Below are positions 1,886 to 54,054 of a stretch of DNA of 64,000 nucleotides, in pieces. Within the stretch, counting starts at the first letter, position 1. Each line of letters starts with the position of its first letter. Below the pieces are notes generated by a model. It was given only the letters and a program-made list of their open reading frames with translations, made no database searches and had not been told where the DNA came from. The position numbers were made by a program, and so were the translations under genes. Source of the DNA: Spirochaetia bacterium (GTDB lineage Bacteria; Spirochaetota; Spirochaetia; WTKD01; G963693115); assembly GCA_965226055.1 (NCBI GenBank), contig CBDDCA010000004.1:32001-96000 (forward strand), given 5' to 3'.

Positions 1886-2083
1886 TTTTATTATAGTGTA
1901 TATTATTCAAAAAATCAGATGTGTAGAGGTTGAGGTAATGTAATCATATATATTATAATGAATGTATAGTTATTGTATTGTATTACAATACTGTCAACTA
2001 TATTGGTGATGTGTTAAGGGAGAGGCAAGACACACAATAATTTTTTTATTTTTGCTATTGCAAAAGATACCGATTTTATTATT

Positions 2084-2752
2084 ATGGAAACAGAAATAAC
2101 AATCAATGATTTATCCACAGCTATAAATGAGATAAGAGATCGTTTACCTAATAATCAAGGTTGGTCTACACCTAGCGTGATAATATTTACAATTATTGGT
2201 ATTTTGATAGCATTGTTTATATTTTTTGTCTTGTCTGAAATTTTTCAGATTAAAAAAAGAATGAAGGATATTGAAGTAAATATAAAAAACATTTCTATTG
2301 ATACATCAAATCTGGACTTTATTAAAAAATTTATTAGTTTGTTTTTTAAGAATGATGGAGTTGATTTAACTACTATTAGTAGTCCAATTACATTAAACGA
2401 GAGAGGGAAGGATCTCTCAAGAAAAATACAAGCTGATGCTATAATAGGAAGAAATTATGAATCTTTCAAAAAAAATGTATGTAAAGAGGAATCAATAAAT
2501 GCTTATGACATACAACAAAATTGTTTTGATTTTTCAAGAGAAATTATAAAAGAAAAACAGTATTTTGAAGTGGATGAATACGAGAATATGAAATCTATCG
2601 CTTTTGATGAAGGTATTACGATAGAAAGCATGTATATTATCTTTGGTATATTATTAAGGGATAGAATATTAGAAGAAATGCAATTACCTCATGATGATAT
2701 TGATAAACATGATCTCAGTACAACAAACAGCACAACAAATCAAGAAGAATAA
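2084..2752 (+). CDS. Hypothetical protein with single N-terminal TM helix
   Basis: 222-aa ORF, hydrophobic VIIFTIIGILIALFIFFVL, very AT-rich; no recognised motif. Confidence 0.65.
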   Translation: METEITINDLSTAINEIRDRLPNNQGWSTPSVIIFTIIGILIALFIFFVLSEIFQIKKRMKDIEVNIKNISIDTSNLDFIKKFISLFFKNDGVDLTTISSPITLNERGKDLSRKIQADAIIGRNYESFKKNVCKEESINAYDIQQNCFDFSREIIKEKQYFEVDEYENMKSIAFDEGITIESMYIIFGILLRDRILEEMQLPHDDIDKHDLSTTNSTTNQEE

Positions 2753-6596: not shown

Positions 6597-6768
6597 ACCT
6601 CTATCGCCACTTCTATTACTAGAATAGCATATATTAATCTATTTTGTTTTTAAATACTATTGTTATAGGAAACTAGAAATTCTCTTCTGCTTGCTATAAA
6701 TAAAAAAATACGCTCTATAAATTATATTGTACAAAGACAAAAAATATAAAATATGTTATTATAAAACT

Positions 6769-6921
6769 ATGAGTAATAAAACAAGCAAAGATAGTTATTC
6801 AGAGAAAAAAAATGCGTCTAGTAGTAACACATCATCGTTTGATGTTAGTAAATACATGATAGCACAAGAAAGTGTAGAACTATTTCGCAAAAACAGTAAA
6901 GGGCAAAAAGGCAAGAAATAG
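6769..6921 (+). CDS. 50-aa basic small protein (SFxxSKYMxAQE family), copy 1
   Basis: MSNKTSKDSYSEKKNASSSNTSSFDVSKYMIAQESVELFRKNSKGQKGKK; paralog of equal length at 52736-52888. TGnTATTAT lies 6 nt before the ATG. Confidence 0.65.
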   Translation: MSNKTSKDSYSEKKNASSSNTSSFDVSKYMIAQESVELFRKNSKGQKGKK

Positions 6922-6929
6922 AATAAAAA

Positions 6930-7216
6930 TTTACTAACAGGATAACTATAAAAAAGTATCAGTAATACTATTGCTAGTGTAGAATATATTGTCAGACTCC
7001 ATCTGCTGTATTATAGATAATATTCCCTGTATCATAGGCATGATTGCCACTATTAGTATTATACACCCTGTTAATAATACTGTAGCTTTTGAACTATTTT
7101 TATCTGATATTGTTCTGATATTATTATTAAGATTTATTGCATTCTCATAAATAAATTCTAGCATTTTAGGATCTTTTTCTAAGAGTTTCTCATCTATGTT
7201 TAGTTTTTTCTTCCAT
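6930..7216 (-). pseudogene. Frameshifted, truncated paralog of the 3-TM protein at 52077-52721
   Basis: ATG 7216 is followed by an extra A in an A-run. LEFIYENAINLNNNIRTISDKNSSKATVLLTGCIILIVAIMPMIQGI matches LNFIYDNAIKLINSIKTVSDKHNSKATVLLTSCILIIVAMIPIIKGI. TM2 (STLAIVLLILFIVILLV) lies in another frame and the C-terminal half is missing. Confidence 0.8.
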
Positions 7217-7345
7217 AGGTAGATTATAACAAAAACAAAGCAAATAGTAGATATTATAGGATATACAAATGGAAATTCTCTTTGCTTGCTATAAATAAAA
7301 AAAGTGATATAATAAAAATAAATTGTTCAATATATAGGAGGTTAT

Positions 7346-30923: not shown

Positions 30924-33900
30924 ATGATAAGAAATAATATAACACGAAAAATGTGGGGGGGGGGGGGGGTAAACTCTCTTTTCTCGTATATATAGTGATA
31001 GCTGCTATACTCATAGCATGTACAGATAGTAGTAGCAGTTCATCAGGAGGAGGGTCTGATCCTACTCCACCGACACCGACAACACTTGGGTCAGTATCAG
31101 ATTTATCGATAACATCAGTAGCAGATAATGGATCACTAGAGCTCAGCTGGGAAGCACCAGTAGCAGCAGACAGTGTGGTCATCACCGCAAGTCCTGTAGG
31201 CACTACAGGGCAGTCCTTTAGCGTAACAGTACCCGCACAGGAATATAAGGAACTCTTTCTGGGAAGGCTAAAATACGAGCTAAAAGGCTTGAAAGAGCAT
31301 ACCGCCTATACGATAGAGGTAGAAGCGCAATCAGGAAGTCAGAAGTCGTCAAAGGTATCGCAAGAAATTATTACCGCAGCGGATACCACTGCCCCGCAAG
31401 ATAGCTTTTTTCATGTAGGAGTAGAGAAAGCAGGAGACAACCAGCTCAAAGTAGTATGGGACACAAAGAGGCTAGGGAAAGGCAAAACCGATATAAGCAA
31501 AGCAGAAGTGCAAATAGAAAATGCATCAGGAGAGGTAGTAGCGAAAAAAGAAATAACCAATGTAGAGAGCGGAGAGCTTGCATTTTCGGTAGCGACAAGC
31601 AGTAATGTACGCTACGATGTAAAGATAGTCTATGAAGATATCAATGGCAACAAAGCAAGCGTAAAAGAAGAATTGACAGATATAGATCCCTCAAAGCTCG
31701 GAGAAGCAGTGCCTGCGTTACAAGCATCAAATGTAAAAGTAGAAGCAAAAGATAAAACAGGAGCAGCAGCAGATGAGAGTCTGCTTATTACATGGGGGAA
31801 TTACGATGTAAGCGGTGAAGTAGAACTGTTGGTAGTGGTAGAGACAAGCACGGGACAAGTAGTAGCAGATGCCCGTGTGACAAAAAACAGTGTTGCCCAA
31901 GTAGCAAATGCGACAGAAGAAAAAGGGATGCTGTATGTAGGGCAGAATGGCGTAGCAGTAACCAAGCTCTATGGAGTACAGAGCTACAAAGCGATAGTGC
32001 GACCCTATAAGAACGGGAGATACTATACGGCAGTAGAGAAAGAAGGAACAACCACCGATAAGCAGACAGAAGCAGTAACAAATGTGGGAGTAGTAGCAGG
32101 GCAAACCAGAGTGATAGTAAGCTGGCAAGCACCGCAAGTAGGAGATTATGCAGGAGTAAAGATAACAGTAATGCAAGGGATAACAGTAGTAAAGACAGAG
32201 ACGATAAGGAGCAGTAGTGTAAGGAATGCCGAAATAACAGGCTTGGAAGCAGCAACAAAGTACAAAGTGAAAGTCGTATCGCTTGATAGTGCTGATAACG
32301 AAGGAGCAGCAGCAGAAAAAGAAGTGACAACGCTCACAAATGCAGATACAGAAGCACCTGATGCCGTAGGAAGTATCACCAGTAGAGTAGTACTTTCAGG
32401 AGGCAAGAAAGCGTTGCGTATAGAGTGGGGAGCACCAAATACTACACTTGCGAAAAATCAAGACATAAAAGAATATCTAGTAAGTGTAGCAGAGAAAGAA
32501 GCCCCCAATACCGAAGTGTTGCCATCGACAGCAGTGAAGTATCCAGCGACCCGTTTCTATAAAGAAATAGCAAGTTTAGAATCAGGAAAGACCTACGAAG
32601 TAAAGATACTGAGTAAAGATTATGCAGGAAACGAGAGTGAAAAAACAGCAGAGGTGACAGTGCCAGCAGCACTGGCAGCCCCCTCAAAGGATGGAGTAGA
32701 AGGGATTACGCTTGATAAGAGCGGGGCAATAAGAGCAAAGGTAGCATTTAAGACAGGCCCTGGAAGTAGTATCTATTATCGAGTAAGGATGAACGAAGGA
32801 GCAACAGTCGTAGCAGAAAAGAGCATAACAGGAAGTACAAAAGAAGTATACTTTGGGATAGCAGATGGCCTAGAAGTAGCAAGCACAGAAGGAACAGCAA
32901 AAGAGTATGGGTTTTTTCTAATAGAAATAAAAGGCGGGCAAGTAAGTCCCGCAACAGACATAGCAAGTACAAAGCTCAAAGTATGGGATAGTGTATCGAC
33001 AGCCCCCCCTATGCCCAGTGGAGCAACCTTGAAAGAAGCACAATCATTTAAGGGGATCTATGAGTTTAGTATAGGAACATTTGGAGCATCGTATAAAACA
33101 CCAGCAGGGACGGAGTTATCACAATCACAAGTAGAGTATAGAGTGTACATAGCAGAAGGAGACCATAGCACCCTAGACGAAATACAAGCAGAAAGCGGAG
33201 TAAGAAGCCGTGTGGTACAAGGAAGCAATAGTGCGACCAAGCACAGTATCACCTTTGCAGGAGAAGACAAAAAGACCTATACGGTAGGAGTAGCAGCGAT
33301 AAATACACTCAATAGCACAAAAGTAGCAAGCGGAACAGCAGGAACAATAAAGAAGCTGACAATGGAAGGAGTACAAGCAGTACCTCCAGCCCAGTCCTTA
33401 GTGAATGATATCTTAGCAGTGAGTAAGTCGCTGACAAAAGAAGGGACAATAAAAATAGAAGTGACCGAGTTGACAGCATTTACCAATGCAATAGATGCGT
33501 CAGGAAATCCGATAACAAGTAATGCAGGGCTGGTATATACCGTATATGGCTTGCAAAAAGATACGAACCCAGCAAATGCACAAGAAGTAGTAAGCAATGG
33601 AAGAAAAGTAGCCATAGGAAGTGCAAGTGGAGGCAAGTATACCCAGGATGGAGTAGATAAATTAGGCTTGACAAGCGAAACACCAAAGGTACAAATAGCA
33701 ATAAAAGGGAAAGCGCAATATCATTTTGTGGTAGAAGTAGCAGTAAAAACAGATACGACCAAGAAAGTATACGGAGCAGTAGAAAGTGTGACAACAGGCT
33801 CGCAAGCAAAAGCACCGCTACAAATTGCAATAAACCCGCTCTTGACAGTAGAGGAAACAAACCCAATACCAACAGGCACGATAGACTTGGAACTCACAGA

Positions 33901-36900
33901 GTTGACAGACTTTTCAAGTGCACAAGCAAAAGACGATACAGGAACAGCAATCACCAGTAATGCAGGACTGGTATATACCGTATATGGCTTACAGAAAGAT
34001 ACGAACCCAACAGATAGGCAAGAAGTAATAACAAACGGGAGAAAAGTAGCCATAGGAAATGCAAGAGGCGGCAAGTATACAGTCTCTGGTTTGAGTAAGT
34101 TAGGGCTTACCACAGATGCAGGAGGACAAATAGATATAGTAGAGAGAAAGCAGTATCATTTTGTGGTAGAAGTAGCAATAAAGACAGATGTGGCAAAGAA
34201 AGTAGTAGGAACAATAAAGACGGTAGTACTGTCATCAAAAGCAGTAGCGCCTGCGCAGTCCTTAGTGAACGATATATTAGTGGTGGATACATCAACAACA
34301 GTAGGAGCAGTAAAAGTAGATCTCACAGTATTGACGCAATTTACGAATGCAAAAGATGATGTAGGAGTAGATATTACTAGCAATGCAGGACTTATCTATA
34401 CAGTATATGGACTACAAAAGACAGGAACAGCCCCAAGTATACAGGATATAGTAAACAATAACAAGAAAGTAGCATTAGGAGCAGTAAGTGGCGGAAAGTA
34501 CACAATCAATGCACTCACAACACTCGGAGCAAGTCCCTCAGTAGAAACGATACAAGGCAACAGAGATTACTATTTTGTCGCAGAAGTAGCAGTAAAAACA
34601 GATACAACAAAGAAAGTGTACAGTACTGTAGAGACAGTAAAGACAGCGTCAAAAGCAGTAGCACCTCAGCAGTCCTCAGTGAACGATATATTAGCAGTGA
34701 GTAAATCGACAACAGTAGGAGAAGTAAAGCTAGAAGTAACAGTACTCACGAGCTTTACAGGACTCAAAGCAGACACAGGAGCAGCGATAAACGATAACAC
34801 AGGCCTTAACTACACAGTGTACGGCTTACAGAAAGATACCACACCTACGAAAAATGAAGTACTTGCAGGAAGGAAAGTAGCCATAGGCACAGTAAGTGCA
34901 GGCAAGTATACAGTCAATAGCTTAGATAAGTTAGGGCTCACTACAGACTCTTCAGCACAAGTAGGGATACTTGGCAATAAGCAATATCATTTTGTCGTAG
35001 AGGTAGCAGTAGCAACAGATACGACTAAGAAAGTAGTAGGCAATATAGAAAGTGTGACGACAGATTCAGAAGCAGTAGCACCATCAGCAGGGGCATTGTC
35101 TGGCAATTTTTCTATGGAACAATCAAGTAGCACAGGAGCCGTAAAGCTCACATTACGAAGATTGACAAGTTTTACAGGACTCAAAGCAGACACAGGAGCA
35201 GCGATAAACGATAACACAGGGCTAAGCTACACAGTGTACGGCTTACAGAAAGATACGAACCCAGCAAATGCACAAGAAGTAGTAAGCAATGGAAGAAAAG
35301 TAGCCATAGGCAGTGCCAGTGGAGCAAACACTGCAGGAGTATACACAGTAGAAGCATTGGATAAGCTAGGATTAACAAGCGATTCAGCAGCACAAGTATC
35401 GCTTGTAGTAGGCAAGCAGTATCATTTTGTAGCAGAGGTAGCAGTGGCAACAGACAAGACAAAAAAAGTATTGAGTACTATAGAGAGCATTACAGTATCA
35501 CCAGCAGTACCGCCAGAACAATCCTTAGTGAACAATATACTATCGCTGGGACAATCAAGCACAGTAGAAAAATTAAAGCTAGAACTCACACAACTGACAC
35601 AGTTTACGAATGCAAAAGACAGTACAGGACAAACAATAACAGATAACAGTAATCTTGTATATACCGTGTACGGCTTACAGAAAGATACGAACCCAGCAAA
35701 TGTGCAAGAGATAGTAAGCAATGGAAGAAAAATAGCCATAGGCACAGTAAGTGGAGGCAAGTACACAGTGGAAGCGTTGGATAAGCTAGGGCTAACAAGC
35801 GATTCAGCAGCACAAATAGACCTAGATGGAGGCAAGAAGTATCATTTTGTGGCAGAGGTAGCAATAGCAAGAGCACCAGGAAAAAGAGTGTACAGTACGG
35901 TACAAAGGATAACAGTGTCTCAAGCAACCCCTCTAAATCAATCAGTGATAGCAGATAACCTCATACTAACAGCAGATTCTGTAGGAGGCATCATTGTGGA
36001 AGTTACTCTGGCCACTGCATTTACTGATGCAAAGAAATTTAATGGAACATCGGTAACTGCAAACAGTGATCTTGAATATAAAGTATATCTGCTAAAAGAT
36101 ACAGGAAGTACACCAACAGCAGCAGAAGTTCGTCAAGGAACAAAAATAAGTGTTTTGGTGGATTTAGTGGAAGGAAAATCTCTTTATTCTGCTAGTAAAA
36201 ATTTCTTTGTGGTGGAACTAAACACAAAGTATCATTTTGTGTTGGAGGTAGAAATAAAATCAGATACAACAAAAACAGTATATAGCAATGTAAAAAACAT
36301 TACCTCAGCAAACAATGTGTCACGAGCAGAAGCTCCCCATAAGGCATTGCTTGCAAATAAGTTAGCAGTATCACAGTCATCCCCAATAGGAGCAATAAAG
36401 CTGGTGTTGACACAGTTGTCTGATTTTGAGTATGGTAGTACTTTTGATAGAGTATATACAAGAGTAGACAGTGGAAAAAGAATAAATAGTAATGAGCATT
36501 TAGAGTATAAGATATTTGGTATTCAACAGGATACAGTGCCTACTGCAAAAGAAGTGATAGATAAGGGATCAGAAATAGCACTTCCTGCACTAAGTGGATC
36601 TACAGTGAAAGGAGGAAGATATACACTAAATGCACTTTCAACAGTAGGCGGATCTTCTATTAAAGGAAAGCAGTATTATTTTGTATTTCAAATAGCAGTA
36701 AAATCTGATCTTACTGCCAAAGTAGTGTCAGATGTGGAAAGTATTCTTGTTGATACCCTTGTTCCTACTGAGGTAAATGCCATTACATTTACTTCAATTT
36801 CAGGAGGAGCTAATGGCACGGCAACAGTACAATGGAATGCTCCTACATTGGGGAATAATTATAAGACAAAGACAGGAACAGCATTGCAAGCCAGTCAAGT

Positions 36901-38581
36901 GTCATATAAAGTATATCATGCAGAAAAAGGAGCAACAGCAAGAACAGTAGCACAGATTAAAGCAGCAGATAATAGCCCTATGACAATAGGAGCAAATGTA
37001 AAGACAGCAGGATTGACAAGCCTTAAAGCAGGGGTAAATTACGAAGTAGTAGTACAAGCAGTAAACAGTACCGATACTACAAAAATGTCAGAGGGTAAGA
37101 GGGCAGAGTTTAAGACAGCACAAGGAGCAGCACCTGGTACTCCTACTGTAGCACTAGAAGCAAATGGCAATACAATAGAGGTAGATGTTACTGCACCGAG
37201 TTTTAGAGGAACAAAGACAGATGGTACAGGATTGACAGAAGATGAGATCAACTATACATTATATTACTATGCATCGACAAGTACCTTGACAGCAGCACAG
37301 GTAAAAACACAAGCAGGAACAGCAAGTGATCCAAAGGTAGGAGGAGTAAAAAATGATGTAACATCGAAAGCAATATATGTACTAGACAATCTCAACAAAG
37401 GACAGAAGTACTTTATTACCGTAGAGGCAGTAAATAGCATTGTAAACAATAGATCTGCCCCTACTTCTGCAGAAAGTGTTACCACTGCAACCTTTACTAT
37501 AGAGTTGCAAAATAGTAATAGTACATATACAGTAGGTACTGCTATTACGCCAATAACAATAACAAAAGATCCAAGCAATGCAACATTTAGCTGTACTATT
37601 GATGCACTAACGAAAGAGACAGGCTTACAATTTTCTGTAAGAGATGGTATCACTGGCACGCCTAACAAATCGAATGAGCATGATCCTTTTATCAGAGAGT
37701 ATAAATACACTTTAGTATGTACAGGAACAGGATTGCATGCAGGACAGCAAAGGCGTAGCATTACAATACAAACAGAGCTACAAGCAGTACAAGGAAAAGC
37801 AGCTAATTACTATAGGCCAACGACAAAGAATACGTTGAGAGATATTATAGATGCAGAGGTAAAGGCACAGAATAAACAAGATCCTAATCTTAACATGATA
37901 GATACCAGTGCTATTACTGATATGAATAATTTATTTTCTGATGTAGGTGGTTATAACTATCAATCTCTTAGAAAAAATGCATTTAATGGAGATCTTTCAA
38001 ATTGGAATACAAGTGAAGTTATAGTTATGGATTATCTGTTTTTTCAATTATTAGTGTTTAATCAGGATATATCGGAATGGGATGTAAGTAATGTCGTTAG
38101 TATGGACTCTATATTTAGAGGTGCTGTGAAATTTAATCAGGATATATCGGAATGGGATGTAAGTAAAGTTACTACTATGGAGTATATGTTTTATGGTGCT
38201 AAAAAGTTTAATCAGGATATATCGCAATGGAATGTAGGTAAAGTTGCTAATATGGATGCTATGTTTGCTGCAGCTTCAGCATTTAATCAGGATATATCAT
38301 CTTGGAAAGTGAGTAATGTTGAGAATATGGACACTATGTTTACTGCAGCTTCAGCATTTAATCAGGATATATCATCTTGGAAAGTGAAGGAAATTGTAGA
38401 CATCGGACAAATGTTTTGGATGGCAGCGAAATTTGATCAAGATTTATCAAGCTGGAATGTATGTACATCGCAAACTTTTAAGAGCTTGAAGGTGTTTAAG
38501 GATACTCCTATGGAGAGTAAAGACGCTCAATACCCAACAGCATTGGATAAAAATACCGATAAAAGATGTTTAGGGTTTTAG
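30924..38581 (+). CDS. Giant surface lipoprotein (FN3-like domains, ~8 x 140-aa repeats, Ig-like domain, C-terminal DUF285/BspA repeats); phase-variable, frameshifted at poly-G
   Basis: Main ORF 30953-38581 with lipobox ILIAC and Ser-rich linker. The SD-preceded ATG 30924 is out of frame across G15 (30955-30969). C-terminal FNQDISxWxV repeats. Confidence 0.85.
30955..30969 (+). repeat. G15 homopolymer in signal-peptide coding region
   Basis: 15 consecutive G in an AT-rich genome; G13 or G16 would fuse ATG 30924 to the main ORF. Confidence 0.9.
33377..36760 (+). repeat. About eight tandem ~420-bp (~140-aa) domain repeats
   Basis: Recurring L.YTVYGLQKDT...GRKVAIG...GKYT...YHFVVEVA..TD..KKV. 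Units begin near 33377, 33808, 34241, 34655, 35072, 35504, 35924 and 36329. Confidence 0.85.
37980..38460 (+). repeat. 75-bp DUF285/BspA-type coding repeats
   Basis: tttaatcaggatatatc at 38057, 38132, 38207, 38282 and 38357 (25-aa period). Confidence 0.9.
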
Positions 38582-40627: not shown

Positions 40628-40700
40628 GCCCTTGTAGCTCAGCTGGTAGAGCACATCCATGGTAAGGATGGGGTCATCGGTTCAAGTCCGATCGAGGGCT
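40628..40700 (+). tRNA. tRNA-Thr(GGT)
   Basis: Acceptor GCCCTTG/CGAGGGC, anticodon stem CATCC/GGATG with loop ATGGTAA, T-loop GGTTCAAGTCC; CCA not encoded. Confidence 0.95.
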
Positions 40701-40702
40701 TT

Positions 40703-40775
40703 AGGTCAGTAGCTCCAATGGTAGAGCGACGGTCTCCAAAACCGTATGTTGTAGGTTCGAATCCTACCTGACCTG
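40703..40775 (+). tRNA. tRNA-Trp(CCA)
   Basis: Acceptor AGGTCAG/CTGACCT, anticodon stem ACGGT/ACCGT with loop CTCCAAA, GGTTCGAATCC; lies directly upstream of secE. Confidence 0.95.
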
Positions 40776-50500: not shown

Positions 50501-51770
50501 TTGTATTGCAAGGGTTATTGATGATATATTATTACTGGTGAATGTGGAGCAGGAAATTGAACTTCGTACTGGAACTAAACTGACAGTAGAAGAAAATCAG
50601 ATAGTAGCAGAGAGAGAGAAAATTGCTGAGTTTGATATTTTTAGCGAACCTATTATTAGTGAGTTTCAGGGATTTGTAAAATATGAAGATATTATTCCCG
50701 GTACTACTATGCGAGAGGAAATAAACCAAGAGACAGGGCGTAGTGAGAAAAAGATTATTGAAACAAATTTGCCTTCTATTAACCCTCGTATTATTGTGCT
50801 TGATCAGAATGGGGAAGAGTTAGGAGTATACTCACTTCCTTTTAATTCTTATCTCAGTATAGATAATGGGCAAGAGGTAGAGATTGGACAGATTATGGCT
50901 AAGATGCCTCAAGAAAGTGTAAAAACACGTGACATTACAGGGGGACTTCCTAAGATTAGTAAGCTCTTTGAAGCTCATAATCCAAAAGAAATATCTGCAG
51001 TGTTAGCTAAAATTGATGGGACAGTGAAAAGTATTCAATCAAAGGATAGGGGGCGTACAGTAGTGATTGAGGATATTTTTGCAAAAAAATATGAACATCA
51101 AATACCGTTAGGAAGGCATATGCTAGTGCGAGCAGGGGATCAAGTAAAGGCAGGAGAACTGCTTTGTGAAGGGGAAATTAGTCCACATGATATGTTAGAT
51201 ATTTTAGGAGAAAATGTATTACAGTTGTTTCTTATCAATGAAATTCAAGAAGTATATCGATTGCAAGGGGTGAATATAAACGATAAGCATATTGGAGTAA
51301 TTATTCGTCAAATGATGCGCATGTTAGAAGTAGTACAGGTAGGAGATACTCCTCTTATTCAAGGGCAGCTTATTGATAGATTTAAGTTTCGTGAAGAGAA
51401 TGAAGCTATTATTAAAAAGGGTGGACAACCAGCTATTGCAAAACCATGTTTGTTAGGAGTAAAGAAAGCAAGTATCAATGTTGATTCTTTCCTTTCTGCT
51501 GCTTCTTTTCAAGAAACAACAAAAGTACTTACCAACAAAGCGATAGAAGGAGCAGTGGATAACCTTAATGGATTAAAAGAAAATCTTATACTAGGGCAGC
51601 TGATTCCTGCTGGGACAGGATTATCGTATTATAGAAATATAGAGTTGTTTGATAAAGATTCAAAAAATCTTGATGATAAAGTGCAAGAAATTTTGGAACA
51701 AAGAGAGTTTGAAAAAGAAGAAATTCGCAAGAATGCTCAAATTGAAGAACAAAATGATCCAGTGTTTTAG
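47535..51770 (+). CDS. rpoC: RNA polymerase beta' subunit
   Basis: Zn finger [26 protein letters not shown]; ATG 47535 follows SD AGGAG. Confidence 0.98.
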
Positions 51771-51774
51771 GTAA

Positions 51775-52005
51775 TCAGGGTATGAAACTTACATATGTAC
51801 ACAAACATCCTTTGTGGTAGAGTAGGTCTTTCTTATACTGCTTTGTAAGTGCTACTTGCCTCTGTGCAAGTAATATTTTTGTGTCGAGGCTCTGTAGAAA
51901 AGATGCTATCTTTTGTTGTTCAGGGAGGGAAGGGAGCGTTATTTTTATAGCTGCCAAATTTGTAGAATTTATGGCAGGATAGTGTGAAAATCTTTCATGT
52001 CGCAT
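51775..52005 (-). pseudogene. Type I R-M specificity subunit (HsdS) C-terminal fragment
   Basis: YPAINSTNL..IKITLPSLPEQQKIASFLQSLDTKI...KQYKKDLL conserved HsdS helix; no TRD, no hsdM/R nearby. Confidence 0.75.
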
Positions 52006-52076
52006 GTAATGCTTGAACTCGTGATTTGTATGTCTATAGCCTCTACAATTTGTTTTGTATTTGTTATAATCTATCT

Positions 52077-52721
52077 ATGGAAGAAGAAGTCAAAATAAAT
52101 TGGAAATATATAGTAGATGAGAAACATTTTAAAAAAAACCCTGAAATACTAAACTTTATTTATGATAATGCAATAAAACTTATTAATAGTATAAAAACAG
52201 TATCAGATAAACATAATTCAAAAGCTACAGTTTTATTAACAAGCTGCATACTAATAATAGTTGCAATGATACCTATAATTAAAGGAATAATACCTGCAGT
52301 ACCAAAAGATATATATCTTAATAGTATGATAAGTACTATTATACTATCAGTTCCATTACTATTATATTTGATATTGTTTGTGCTTGTTTTCGTATATATT
52401 TTTCGTGCAGCTCTGAAATTTAATAATATATTAGGAATAGAGAGTGAAGTTTTTCCATACCCAACTCCTTCAGCTTTTTTTGATAATGAATTATATAAGA
52501 ATAATAGTATAAAAATAAAAATAGGAATAATACGATTATTAGAAGATATAATACATGAAAACTATGAAAAGACAGTACAAAAAGATAAACTATTTCTTCA
52601 AGGAAAAAAAATGTTTCAAAAAGGGATTGTTTTGTTGTGCTGTGCATTCATATTATTTTTGATAATGCACATAGTGATAACACCATTATTAAAATATATG
52701 TTACTTTTAGGGGTGCTATAA
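52077..52721 (+). CDS. 3-TM membrane protein of the repeated convergent module
   Basis: Three hydrophobic segments (SKATVLLTSCILII, second TM, C-terminal TM after QKDKLF). TGnTATAAT 6 nt before ATG 52077; paralog pseudogene at 6930-7216. Confidence 0.75.
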   Translation: MEEEVKINWKYIVDEKHFKKNPEILNFIYDNAIKLINSIKTVSDKHNSKATVLLTSCILIIVAMIPIIKGIIPAVPKDIYLNSMISTIILSVPLLLYLILFVLVFVYIFRAALKFNNILGIESEVFPYPTPSAFFDNELYKNNSIKIKIGIIRLLEDIIHENYEKTVQKDKLFLQGKKMFQKGIVLLCCAFILFLIMHIVITPLLKYMLLLGVL

Positions 52722-52735
52722 AATTGTTATATGTA

Positions 52736-52888
52736 CTATTTCTTTGCGTAATTGTTTTTTTCTTTATTAGTTTTTGAGGGGAAATTTACATTTTCTTGTG
52801 CTCTCATGTACTTGCTAATACTAAAAGATGGTATGGTATTAGAAAAATTTACTTCTTTTGTAGTATTTTCTTTTTTCATTTTACTCAT
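52736..52888 (-). CDS. 50-aa basic small protein (SFxxSKYMxAQE family), copy 2 (not in ORF track)
   Basis: MSKMKKENTTKEVNFSNTIPSFSISKYMRAQENVNFPSKTNKEKNNYAKK; same length and motif as 6769-6921; TGnTATTAT 6 nt upstream. Confidence 0.65.
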   Translation of the reverse strand: MSKMKKENTTKEVNFSNTIPSFSISKYMRAQENVNFPSKTNKEKNNYAKK

Positions 52889-53049
52889 AAGTTTATAATA
52901 GCATATTATATAGTTTTTTAGTCAATGAAAAGCACAAGTTCAAGTATTAAATGTGAAAAAGAAGTGCAAAATCCACAGTTACATTATTTTTTTATTTACT
53001 TTATAATAGTAACTAAAGAAAGTAACTATGAGTACTGAGAGAGGAAGTT

Positions 53050-54054
53050 ATGCAAAGTTTTTTTAATCAACCAAACCAAGTTGTTGATGATATGCTAAAA
53101 GGGTTTGTAAAGCATCATAGGTCTCTAGTGTCCACTACTTCTAATCCAAGAGTCCTTAAATACAAGGATGCTCCTATTGCCAATAAAGTTGGTATAGTGA
53201 CAGGAGGAGGGTCAGGACATAAACCTGCTTTTATAGGATATATTGGGCGTAATATGGTAGATGCTGTAGCGGTAGGCGAGATATTTTCGTCTCCTACGGC
53301 ACAGGCTTTTTTAGATGCGTTTAAGGCTGCTGATAGTGGAAAAGGGGTAGCCTGTTTGTATGGTAACTATGCAGGTGATAATATGAATGTGAAAATGGCC
53401 ATAAAGATGGCTTCTGCACAGGGAATTACTGTAAAAACTGTGGTGGCAAATGATGATGTACCATCAGCATCTCTTAATGAGAGGGAAAAAAGGCGGGGAG
53501 TAGCAGGCGAAATCATGATGTGGAAAGTTGCTGCGGCTTTAGCTGCACAAGGATCAGATTTGGACACGGTCATATCTGGGGCACAGAAAGCAATAGATAA
53601 TACTCGAAGCATAGGAGTTGGTTTAGCTCCTTGTAGTATTCCTGAGGTAGGTAAGCCTAATTTTACGATAGAGGAAGGCAAGATGGAGTTTGGCATAGGG
53701 CATCATGGGGAACCAGGTATTCGTATTGAGGATCTTAAAACAGCAGATGAAATAGCCACAGAAATGGTAGAAACAGTAGTGCAGGATAAACCTTTTGTGT
53801 CAAGTGATAATGTAGTAGTGTTATTATCAGGGTTGGGAGCAACAACCTTTATGGAACAATATATTTTGTATAATAAGGTGGAAGAAGTACTACAGAAGAA
53901 AGGTATACAGGTACATGCATCATATGTAGGAAACTATTTTACTTCTCTTGAAATGAAAGGGGCAACATTGACACTTATGAAAGTGGATGATGATATGAAG
54001 TCTCTTGTTGATATAGAAACTGAGAGTATGGGACTTACTCAATTTCAAAGGTAG
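53050..54054 (+). CDS. dhaK: Dihydroxyacetone/tetrose kinase subunit DhaK-like
   Basis: GGGSGHKP, GEIFSSP, NYAGD, RRGVAG, GIGHHGEPG. Confidence 0.9.
   Translation: MQSFFNQPNQVVDDMLKGFVKHHRSLVSTTSNPRVLKYKDAPIANKVGIVTGGGSGHKPAFIGYIGRNMVDAVAVGEIFSSPTAQAFLDAFKAADSGKGVACLYGNYAGDNMNVKMAIKMASAQGITVKTVVANDDVPSASLNEREKRRGVAGEIMMWKVAAALAAQGSDLDTVISGAQKAIDNTRSIGVGLAPCSIPEVGKPNFTIEEGKMEFGIGHHGEPGIRIEDLKTADEIATEMVETVVQDKPFVSSDNVVVLLSGLGATTFMEQYILYNKVEEVLQKKGIQVHASYVGNYFTSLEMKGATLTLMKVDDDMKSLVDIETESMGLTQFQR

Follow-up and report, generated by a model that had tools for sequence, protein, structure and literature searches.

What kind of genetic unit is formed when a gene for a small membrane protein runs tail-to-tail into an open reading frame (ORF) of only 50 codons? 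This question is raised by a locus at positions 52024-52918 of a DNA stretch of 64,000 nucleotides (positions 32,001 to 96,000 of contig CBDDCA010000004.1; hereafter the window) from an uncultured Spirochaetia bacterium. A preliminary description had taken the pair for a mobile two-component unit, such as a membrane toxin or abortive-infection effector controlled by a short peptide and/or antisense RNA. We find that the pair (copy 1) represents a two-gene cassette, self-contained and ~0.9 kb long, that has been multiplied in one uncultured genus of Spirochaetia. The long gene very probably encodes an inner-membrane protein of ~200 amino acids (aa) with a cytoplasmic N-terminus (N-in), which belongs to a sparse family remotely homologous to PycTM. 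Its tail-to-tail partner very probably encodes a fast-evolving micro-protein of 41-104 aa, and in most copies the genes start just past an extended -10 element, so that the mRNAs would be leaderless.

The genome that holds the window (G000) is an assembly of 2.25 Mb in 6 contigs and is 89% complete. The window lies within contig C4, and the other contigs referred to below are C5 and C6. The genome of the sister species is denoted G001, and L-numbers denote fetched loci.

Architecture of the convergent pair

The cassette of copy 1 is composed as follows:

52024-52918: duplicated cassette, ~0.9 kb from promoter to promoter; 68% similar to a paralogous cassette of the sister species
52042-52076, + strand: promoter of the membrane gene, with a -35-like hexamer at 52042 and an extended -10 (TG and hexamer) that ends at 52070, 6 nt from the ATG
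52077-52721, + strand: membrane gene; 214 aa, three transmembrane (TM) segments, N-in; putative remote relative of PycTM
52722-52735: spacer of 14 nt between the convergent stop codons, without a terminator-like hairpin
52736-52888, - strand: micro-protein gene; hydrophilic product of 50 aa, its middle formed by a conserved core of ~20 residues
52889-52926, - strand: promoter of the micro-protein gene; extended -10 (TG and hexamer) at 52895-52903, 6 nt from the ATG, and a -35-like hexamer around 52921-52926

Our reading of the ORFs agreed with the original placement of the membrane gene, ending 14 nt from the 50-codon frame on the opposite strand. The reported lack of a terminator hairpin between the two was likewise found, as a pattern scan of 51700-53200 gave a single site, at 51853(+), just past rpoC.

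In a hydropathy scan the TM segments of the membrane protein cover residues 50-68, 88-106 and 183-201. The Lys and Arg residues cluster in the first 49 positions and in the central segment of 76 residues, and for that reason an N-in, C-out topology is predicted. The predicted layout comprises a cytoplasmic N-terminal helix, a TM hairpin, the cytoplasmic central segment and a C-terminal TM segment. An AlphaFold2 model, made with an alignment of 12 sequences, contains long helices at residues 22-71, 84-120 and 138-210 (mean pLDDT 77.8). It had no match in PDB or BFVD at E <=0.001, which says little because the model consists of three long helices. The micro-protein holds 11 Lys/Arg against 4 Asp/Glu residues and has a mean hydropathy of -1.35. 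Neither protein has a significant match in Pfam or PADLOC, and no DNA-binding domain could be recognised in the micro-protein.

A family of paired cassettes

Single-protein and profile searches of G000 recovered 10 loci of the membrane family: C4:84k (copy 1), C4:38.9k (copy 2), C6:149k, C6:590k, C6:754k, C6:887k, C5:277k, C5:498k and a tandem pair at C5:509-510k. For the partner we used a profile trained on 14 small ORFs of the two species, 4 of them one codon short. Among the 44,354 six-frame segments of G000 it produced 8 matches at E <=4e-6, the next one having an E-value of 0.72. Each of the 8 converges on a locus of the membrane family, and one of them (C5:498438-498671) was outside the training set. 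In this way, 8 of the 10 membrane-family loci were found to be paired with a family small gene. The other two are C6:754k, where a convergent, acidic ORF of 41 aa is not recognised by the profile, and the second gene of the C5 tandem, which is truncated before its last TM segment and has no convergent partner. The numbers in the sister species are comparable: in G001 there are 8 distinct family small genes (7 found with the profile on the fetched loci and that of L070 by an alignment search), each of them convergent beside a membrane-family gene or its remnant. The distance between the paired reading frames varies, with a gap of 54 nt at one extreme and a 62-nt overlap at the other.

The tandem (C5:508400-510460; L080) deviates in its layout. 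Its two membrane-family genes share an identical promoter stretch of 31 nt, the first gene encodes 293 aa through an internal insertion that adds hydrophobic segments, and the small gene sits between both membrane genes and diverges from the second. The repeat at C5:509-510k was considered as a transposon end and rejected, as it is the promoter common to the two genes.

Copy 2 was already listed in the preliminary description as a second tail-to-tail pair, at 7216(-)/6769(+). The small ORF is indeed intact; the membrane gene facing it carries a frameshift and lacks its 3' part. The features are:

6671-6708, + strand: left direct repeat bracketing copy 2, ~38 nt
6769-6921, + strand: micro-protein gene, copy 2; 50 aa, intact, carrying the core motif
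6946-7216, - strand: membrane gene remnant, copy 2; ~90 N-terminal codons kept, 3' part deleted
7267-7303, + strand: right direct repeat bracketing copy 2, ~38-nt repeat

Reading from 7216(-), the membrane gene meets a stop after 8 codons via a frameshift in an A-run. What remains is an ORF of 72 aa, 6946-7164(-), with the N-terminal helix and TM1 only; TM2, the central helix and TM3 have been lost relative to the intact G001 orthologue of 197 aa, which adjoins the same lipoprotein gene. The 50-aa ORF differs from its G001 orthologue by 2 residues. The bracketing repeat has an exact core of 21 nt that is found nowhere else in the genome, and may have arisen as a target duplication or by duplication of local sequence. 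We also looked for transposon-like ends of the cassettes in general and rejected them, since direct repeats flank copy 2 alone.

The distribution of the cassette is narrow. A search of 41 genomes with the single membrane protein, the genome of the window included, gave matches strong enough to call in two, G000 and the sister species, and a word-index search of 5.8 billion proteins with the membrane protein returned only the query itself. An alignment search of that collection with the small ORFs gave 8 proteins, all from the two genomes of this genus. The profile of the membrane family matched in 16 of the 401 genomes of the class, and outside the genus the matches were better than 1e-5 in four genomes alone (G272, G347, G007 and G188). 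A query for relatives outside the genus (P0008) had no match in genome or metagenome contigs; another query yielded one metagenome contig (L052). No relatives of the micro-protein were detected with the small-ORF profile on the scanned loci outside the two genus genomes, and an Atlas search with the micro-protein gave only scores below 0.8. So far, the cassette is known from a single uncultured genus of the Spirochaetia.

The small ORF as a coding gene

The claim, made from the two copies of the window, that the reading frame of the small ORF is conserved could be confirmed on a larger set. The called frame is free of stops in all 16 loci of the two species, while the antisense frames at the same loci are open in 4, 4 and 1 cases and the other two sense frames in none. 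On basis of the base composition, a random frame of 50 codons would be expected to be open in ~2-3% of cases. The ratio of non-synonymous to synonymous substitution rates (dN/dS) of the small gene is 0.30-0.45 in three of the four orthologous pairs and 0.24-0.74 in pairs of paralogues. An alignment displays the conserved core of ~20 residues between low-complexity flanks. The description of the peptide as basic and 50 aa long, with a shared core, applies to the two copies of the window in length and core; it is not a family trait, as the micro-proteins range from 41 to 104 aa and some are acidic. A hydrophobic or amphipathic C-terminal tail is found in four of them (C6:590k, C5:277k, C5:510k and L018 of G001).

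Considering the fact that the frame is open in 16 of 16 loci and starts 6-7 nt past an extended -10 element in most copies, the small ORF is very probably a real, fast-evolving micro-protein gene, likely a leaderless one. A hydrophobic ORF antisense to it, 52752-52898(+), was rejected as a gene, its frame being open in just 4 of the 16 loci.

Small hydrophilic ORFs of 39-71 aa also adjoin distant membrane-gene relatives in other genera: L025 (G347) 1978-2193(+), L027 (G188) 2014-2181(+), L026 (G007) 1923-2105(-) and L052 3282-3401(-). Two of them (L025 and L027) lie on the same strand as the membrane gene, behind a ribosome-binding site, and two are convergent. Those of L025-L027 are not detected by the small-ORF profile; a C-terminal likeness among the four ORFs, noted by eye, is a lead only. 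The L052 relative further adjoins, in divergent orientation, a gene that looks by eye like an amidase.

Leaderless-type promoters

The -10 boxes of copy 1 are placed as first described, one leaderless-type promoter for each gene, and the layout recurs across the family. In a pattern scan the promoter of the copy-1 membrane gene was the best promoter-like site, with 10 of 12 matches and the TG present. Most copies of both genes start 6-7 nt past a TG-preceded -10 hexamer; for the membrane genes, the layout was seen at 6 of the 7 listed for G000, and those at C6:149k and C6:887k have a ribosome-binding site instead. A strict form of the motif (extended -10, 5-7 nt and ATG) precedes 13 of the 1620 long ORFs of G000 (0.8%) and 0.13% of all ATGs. 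When ORFs of at least 30 aa are considered there are 49 strict sites, 10 of them in family loci, where they precede three membrane genes and 7 of the 8 family small genes.

Strict sites were also observed before ordinary-looking, full-length genes, for instance at C6:741907(-), C6:771652(-) and C6:778384(+), the N-termini of which resemble by eye those of an ABC ATPase, a dehydrogenase and a thiamine enzyme. This suggests that leaderless mRNAs are in use in this spirochaete, ordinary genes included.

The membrane protein as a remote relative of PycTM

A profile of 12 genus members was compared with 1.84 billion cluster representatives and recovered 30 proteins at E <=0.001. Of these, 12 were found at E <=1e-10 and came mostly from this genus; the others were singletons of 155-212 aa from various sources. 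In the alignment of this wider family the order of the elements is the same as in copy 1. Direct matches to models of PycTM are marginal: the PADLOC models matched three to four of the 12 genus members weakly (best E 0.0011), the Pfam model PF18967 found one of 22 wider-family members (E 0.004) and it was absent from the matches of the copy-1 protein (E <=1) and from the families listed for the 12 genus members (E <=10). In an Atlas feature search, the third-ranked cluster carried PycTM (PF18967) on 10% of its members. PF18967 exceeds the cut-off in 11 of the 401 class genomes, and in one of these, G094, the membrane-family profile has a weak match that overlaps the genuine PF18967 gene.

A clearer link was obtained by comparing profiles with hhalign, for which 12 genuine PF18967 proteins were extracted and 11 aligned. 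The wider family matched these at 96.7% (E 4.1e-10, score 65.5) over 143 columns, corresponding to residues 37-200 of copy 1, whereas reversed alignments scored 16 and 20 block-shuffled ones at most 29.2. The genus members match the distant relatives alone at 99.6% (E 5.5e-24), and the distant relatives alone match PycTM at 96.7% (E 3.7e-10). From these profile comparisons we conclude that the membrane protein very probably belongs to a sister family of PycTM, linked to it through intermediates, and is a non-member by the Pfam criterion. NCBIfam and PHROGs gave only scattered single matches on the wider family, one of the 22 members hitting a PHROG of unknown function.

PycTM is the membrane effector of the Pycsar system, activated by cyclic pyrimidines from an adjacent cyclase (described in PMC11224242 and PMC13069673), and in the former it is described as disrupting membrane integrity. 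The likeness extends to size (170-215 aa) and to architecture, with an N-terminal cytoplasmic helix, two TM segments, a proline-containing turn, a cytoplasmic helix and a C-terminal TM segment in the same order. The genomic setting differs. The genuine PycTM genes of the class have an apparent cyclase adjoining them in L058, L059 and L061 (by eye from the translations) and otherwise stand alone, whereas the partner in the cassettes is a convergent micro-protein gene and the number of copies is ~10 per genome. The SLATT and 2TM effectors of CBASS or retron-type defence share the idea of a small helical membrane effector; PADLOC matches to them were weak and not significant (RTasSLATT, best E 0.12; 2TM Effector, best E 0.0066), and the cassettes lack a nucleotide-signalling or reverse-transcriptase neighbour. 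A phage holin or lysis cassette was rejected as well, given the housekeeping neighbours in G000 and the lack of matches in phage records (tblastn) and viral contigs.

What would be new is thus a variant: a PycTM-like effector in a configuration without a cyclase, partnered with a micro-protein, convergent and leaderless, the PycTM effector itself being already known. A full-text literature search found no paper that pairs a PycTM-like gene with a convergent micro-protein; supplementary tables, such as the candidate operons of PMC13069673, lay outside this search and could hold non-canonical PycTM operons.

Replacement of hsdS, turnover and decay

The site of copy 1 differs between the two species. 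The features that flank the cassette are:

end at 51770: rpoC, left neighbour of the copy 1 region
51775-52005, - strand: remnant of hsdS, 76 aa, C-terminal part of a type I restriction specificity protein (PF01420, E 1.7e-9)
start at 53050: DhaK-like gene (named by eye), right neighbour of the copy 1 region

Apart from the membrane gene and the 50-aa ORF, the interval between rpoC and the DhaK-like gene contains only the hsdS remnant. In G001 copy 1 is absent from this site and hsdS is intact (397 aa; L048 3298-4491(-)). The 1016 bp at 51946-52961, comprising the cassette and its flanks, replace 1133 bp of G001 that hold the rest of hsdS, and the flanks beyond are 96-97% identical between the species. 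Contigs from four DNA runs of one study are identical to the window across 51900-53040. The GC content of the cassette is 0.24, as compared to 0.34 for the AT-rich window.

The identities of the partners correlate over 11 pairs (Mantel r 0.83, reached in 0 of 5000 permutations); for the G000 pairs only (6 loci), r is 0.52 and was reached in 172 of 5000 permutations. This shows that the cassette has been duplicated as a unit. The correlation does not constitute independent proof of co-evolution, since kin share history. The notion of a repeated two-gene unit that varies between species is thus corroborated by the shared stretch of 0.9 kb, by the difference at the hsdS site, by the joint divergence of the partners, by the preserved frame of the small ORF and by the recurrence of the leaderless-type promoters.

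At five loci a broken membrane gene lies beside an intact family small gene. The lesions comprise the frameshift in copy 2, an internal deletion at C5:498k, a premature TAG in L038 of G001, two stops in L046 and a 5' truncation in L070. The orthologues C5:498k and L038 carry different lesions in the membrane gene, yet their small ORFs of 60 aa differ by 1 residue. The reverse case, an intact membrane gene without a family partner, is rarer and ambiguous. This asymmetry is as expected if the long gene would be the harmful one.

The hsdS sequence at the site has features of its own. Its segment at ~51798-51945 matches more than 20 places of the sister genome at 79-89% identity, and several of these matches form pairs spaced by ~600 bp, a pattern that numerous hsdS genes or half-genes would give. 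The metagenome contigs break and branch exactly at this segment. Type I specificity genes may thus form a large set here, one that possibly undergoes shuffling.

Proposed function and alternatives

Given the kinship to PycTM, the strict pairing, the turnover between species and the decay that spares the small gene, we tentatively favour a toxin-antidote reading, in which a cyclase-independent, PycTM-like membrane toxin is restrained by the micro-protein in a toxin-antitoxin (TA) or abortive-infection-like cassette; we put this at somewhat less than an even chance. As a latent toxin, the membrane protein would perturb the membrane once it is free, and would need no cyclic-nucleotide signal of the kind used by Pycsar. 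The micro-protein would act on the cytoplasmic helices, as the cognate antidote or regulator. In the absence of a terminator between the genes the transcripts would overlap at their 3' ends, which could add antisense control. Once the short-lived partner is lost, for instance because phage or stress shuts off host expression, the toxin would be freed, resulting in TA or abortive-infection behaviour. Of the 'membrane toxin/abortive-infection effector' that had been suggested at the outset, the remote, profile-level link to PycTM and the decay of membrane genes beside intact small genes are consistent with the effector part, while toxic action is only inferred. A more specific version, which is possible and rather doubtful as a whole, is that of a minimal conflict cassette, in which a cyclase-independent descendant of a Pycsar pore-former is silenced by a co-evolving leaderless micro-protein and by 3'-overlapping transcription, and which spreads as a unit of 0.9 kb into intergenic sites and a restriction gene.

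If true, PycTM-type effectors could be rewired, with direct control by a protein in place of a second messenger, and such micro-proteins would add a concealed level to toxin regulation, one that gene callers may report too rarely. In case the mechanism holds, a defence-type family of membrane effectors would operate without its nucleotide-signalling partner and be controlled by a micro-protein that belongs to no known family. The cassette would offer a compact system (two genes and two leaderless-type promoters in 0.9 kb) to study how effectors are kept inactive, and it provides a clean example of a conserved, translated-looking ORF of ~50 codons.

Various observations weigh against the toxin-antidote reading. 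The cassettes lie singly among housekeeping genes (MnmA, RNase Y, TrkH, GroEL, rpoC and others), outside defence islands. None of 10 scanned neighbours carried a defence or mobility domain at E 1e-5; seven had ordinary metabolic or transport domains and three were without a match. A RelE-like neighbour suspected by eye at C6:590k had no Pfam match at 1e-5 and was discarded. Around 10 copies in 2.2 Mb is many for a defence system, and protein antitoxins are not usually encoded convergently. No family partner can be recognised beside three membrane genes that appear intact: those at C6:754k in G000 and L044 in G001 have unrelated small convergent ORFs, and L020B of G001 has none. One of the four orthologous small-gene pairs has a dN/dS of 1.24, and the values for the membrane genes are 0.47-0.78. 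The ORF lists around all G000 loci contain no cyclase, the four genes with PF00211 being large and all at least 30 kb away. Finally, the profile of the genus alone matches PycTM weakly (69%, E 4.3e-5, 41 columns) and a six-frame search of G000 with PF18967 had no match at E <=10; the kinship to PycTM therefore rests on the intermediates.

Part of these observations can be accommodated by a non-toxic membrane complex, in which the three-TM protein and the micro-protein, tail-anchored in some copies, would be subunits with an envelope or signalling role. The family would have grown and become diverse, as other paralogous families in host-associated spirochaetes have, and its copies would now decay by redundancy. 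This reading seems somewhat unlikely, and it is the main alternative. The housekeeping surroundings, the many copies and the relaxed constraint on both genes (dN/dS 0.3-1.2) are in line with it, and the hydrophobic C-terminal tails of several micro-proteins would fit a membrane subunit as well as an antidote. Moreover, the membrane gene is four times longer, so chance lesions would hit it first, which could explain part of the asymmetry in decay. It is less easily reconciled with the profile-level kinship to a pore-forming defence effector, with the position of copy 1 inside a restriction-system gene, with the low GC content and the presence/absence difference between sister species, or with small genes that stay intact and nearly unchanged beside broken partners (1 residue between the species at C5:498k).

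Control mainly by antisense RNA in the manner of type I TA systems, with the small-gene transcript silencing the 3' end of the membrane mRNA and the peptide being secondary or the RNA bifunctional, is rather improbable. Convergent transcripts that overlap at their 3' ends are known from type I systems such as txpA/RatA and bsrG/SR4 of Bacillus. The cassettes resemble these in being small, multi-copy and chromosomal, with a candidate membrane-acting toxin and strong extended -10 promoters that face each other, without a terminator-like site between the genes in copy 1; the range of spacing, from a gap of 54 nt to the overlap of 62 nt, suits antisense pairing too. The candidate toxin, however, is a three-TM protein of 214 aa and not a small hydrophobic peptide of less than 60 aa, and the 50-aa ORF of copy 1 is hydrophilic. 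The opposing transcript bears a conserved protein-coding frame, which is open at all 16 loci where the antisense frames are not, and its amino-acid core is conserved across paralogues with diverged DNA (dN/dS 0.24-0.74). In the distant loci L025 and L027 the same-strand position of the small ORF makes antisense pairing impossible.

With type II TA systems the cassettes share a two-gene unit that is duplicated together, a fast-evolving small partner and a long gene that decays while the small one persists. They differ from these in that the genes are convergent, each with its own -10 box and not in an operon, that the toxin candidate is a membrane protein and that the small protein is without a recognisable DNA-binding domain.

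A modest weight is left for readings other than those listed here. Reversed roles, with the small protein as a secreted or membrane-active, leaderless bacteriocin-like toxin and the three-TM protein as its immunity factor, are very improbable: a small cationic peptide next to a multi-TM protein resembles bacteriocin/immunity pairs, and the charge of the copy-1 peptide fits this, but five loci with an intact small gene and a broken membrane gene would amount to self-harm, the copy-1 peptide is hydrophilic and of low complexity, some paralogues are acidic, and no export or processing genes adjoin.

Other features of the window

Two adjacent tRNA genes at 40628-40775(+) are the sole Rfam matches within the window. 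A GC-rich and strongly A-skewed stretch (GC 0.42-0.43 and AT skew 0.35-0.40 at 32-36 kb) is accounted for by a single ORF of 2542 aa at 30953-38581(+), which by eye consists of many tandem domain repeats, the C-terminal ones being like those of BspA/DUF285-type surface proteins. C-terminal repeats resembling these also occur in the genes that adjoin the cassettes at C6:149k and C5:498k.

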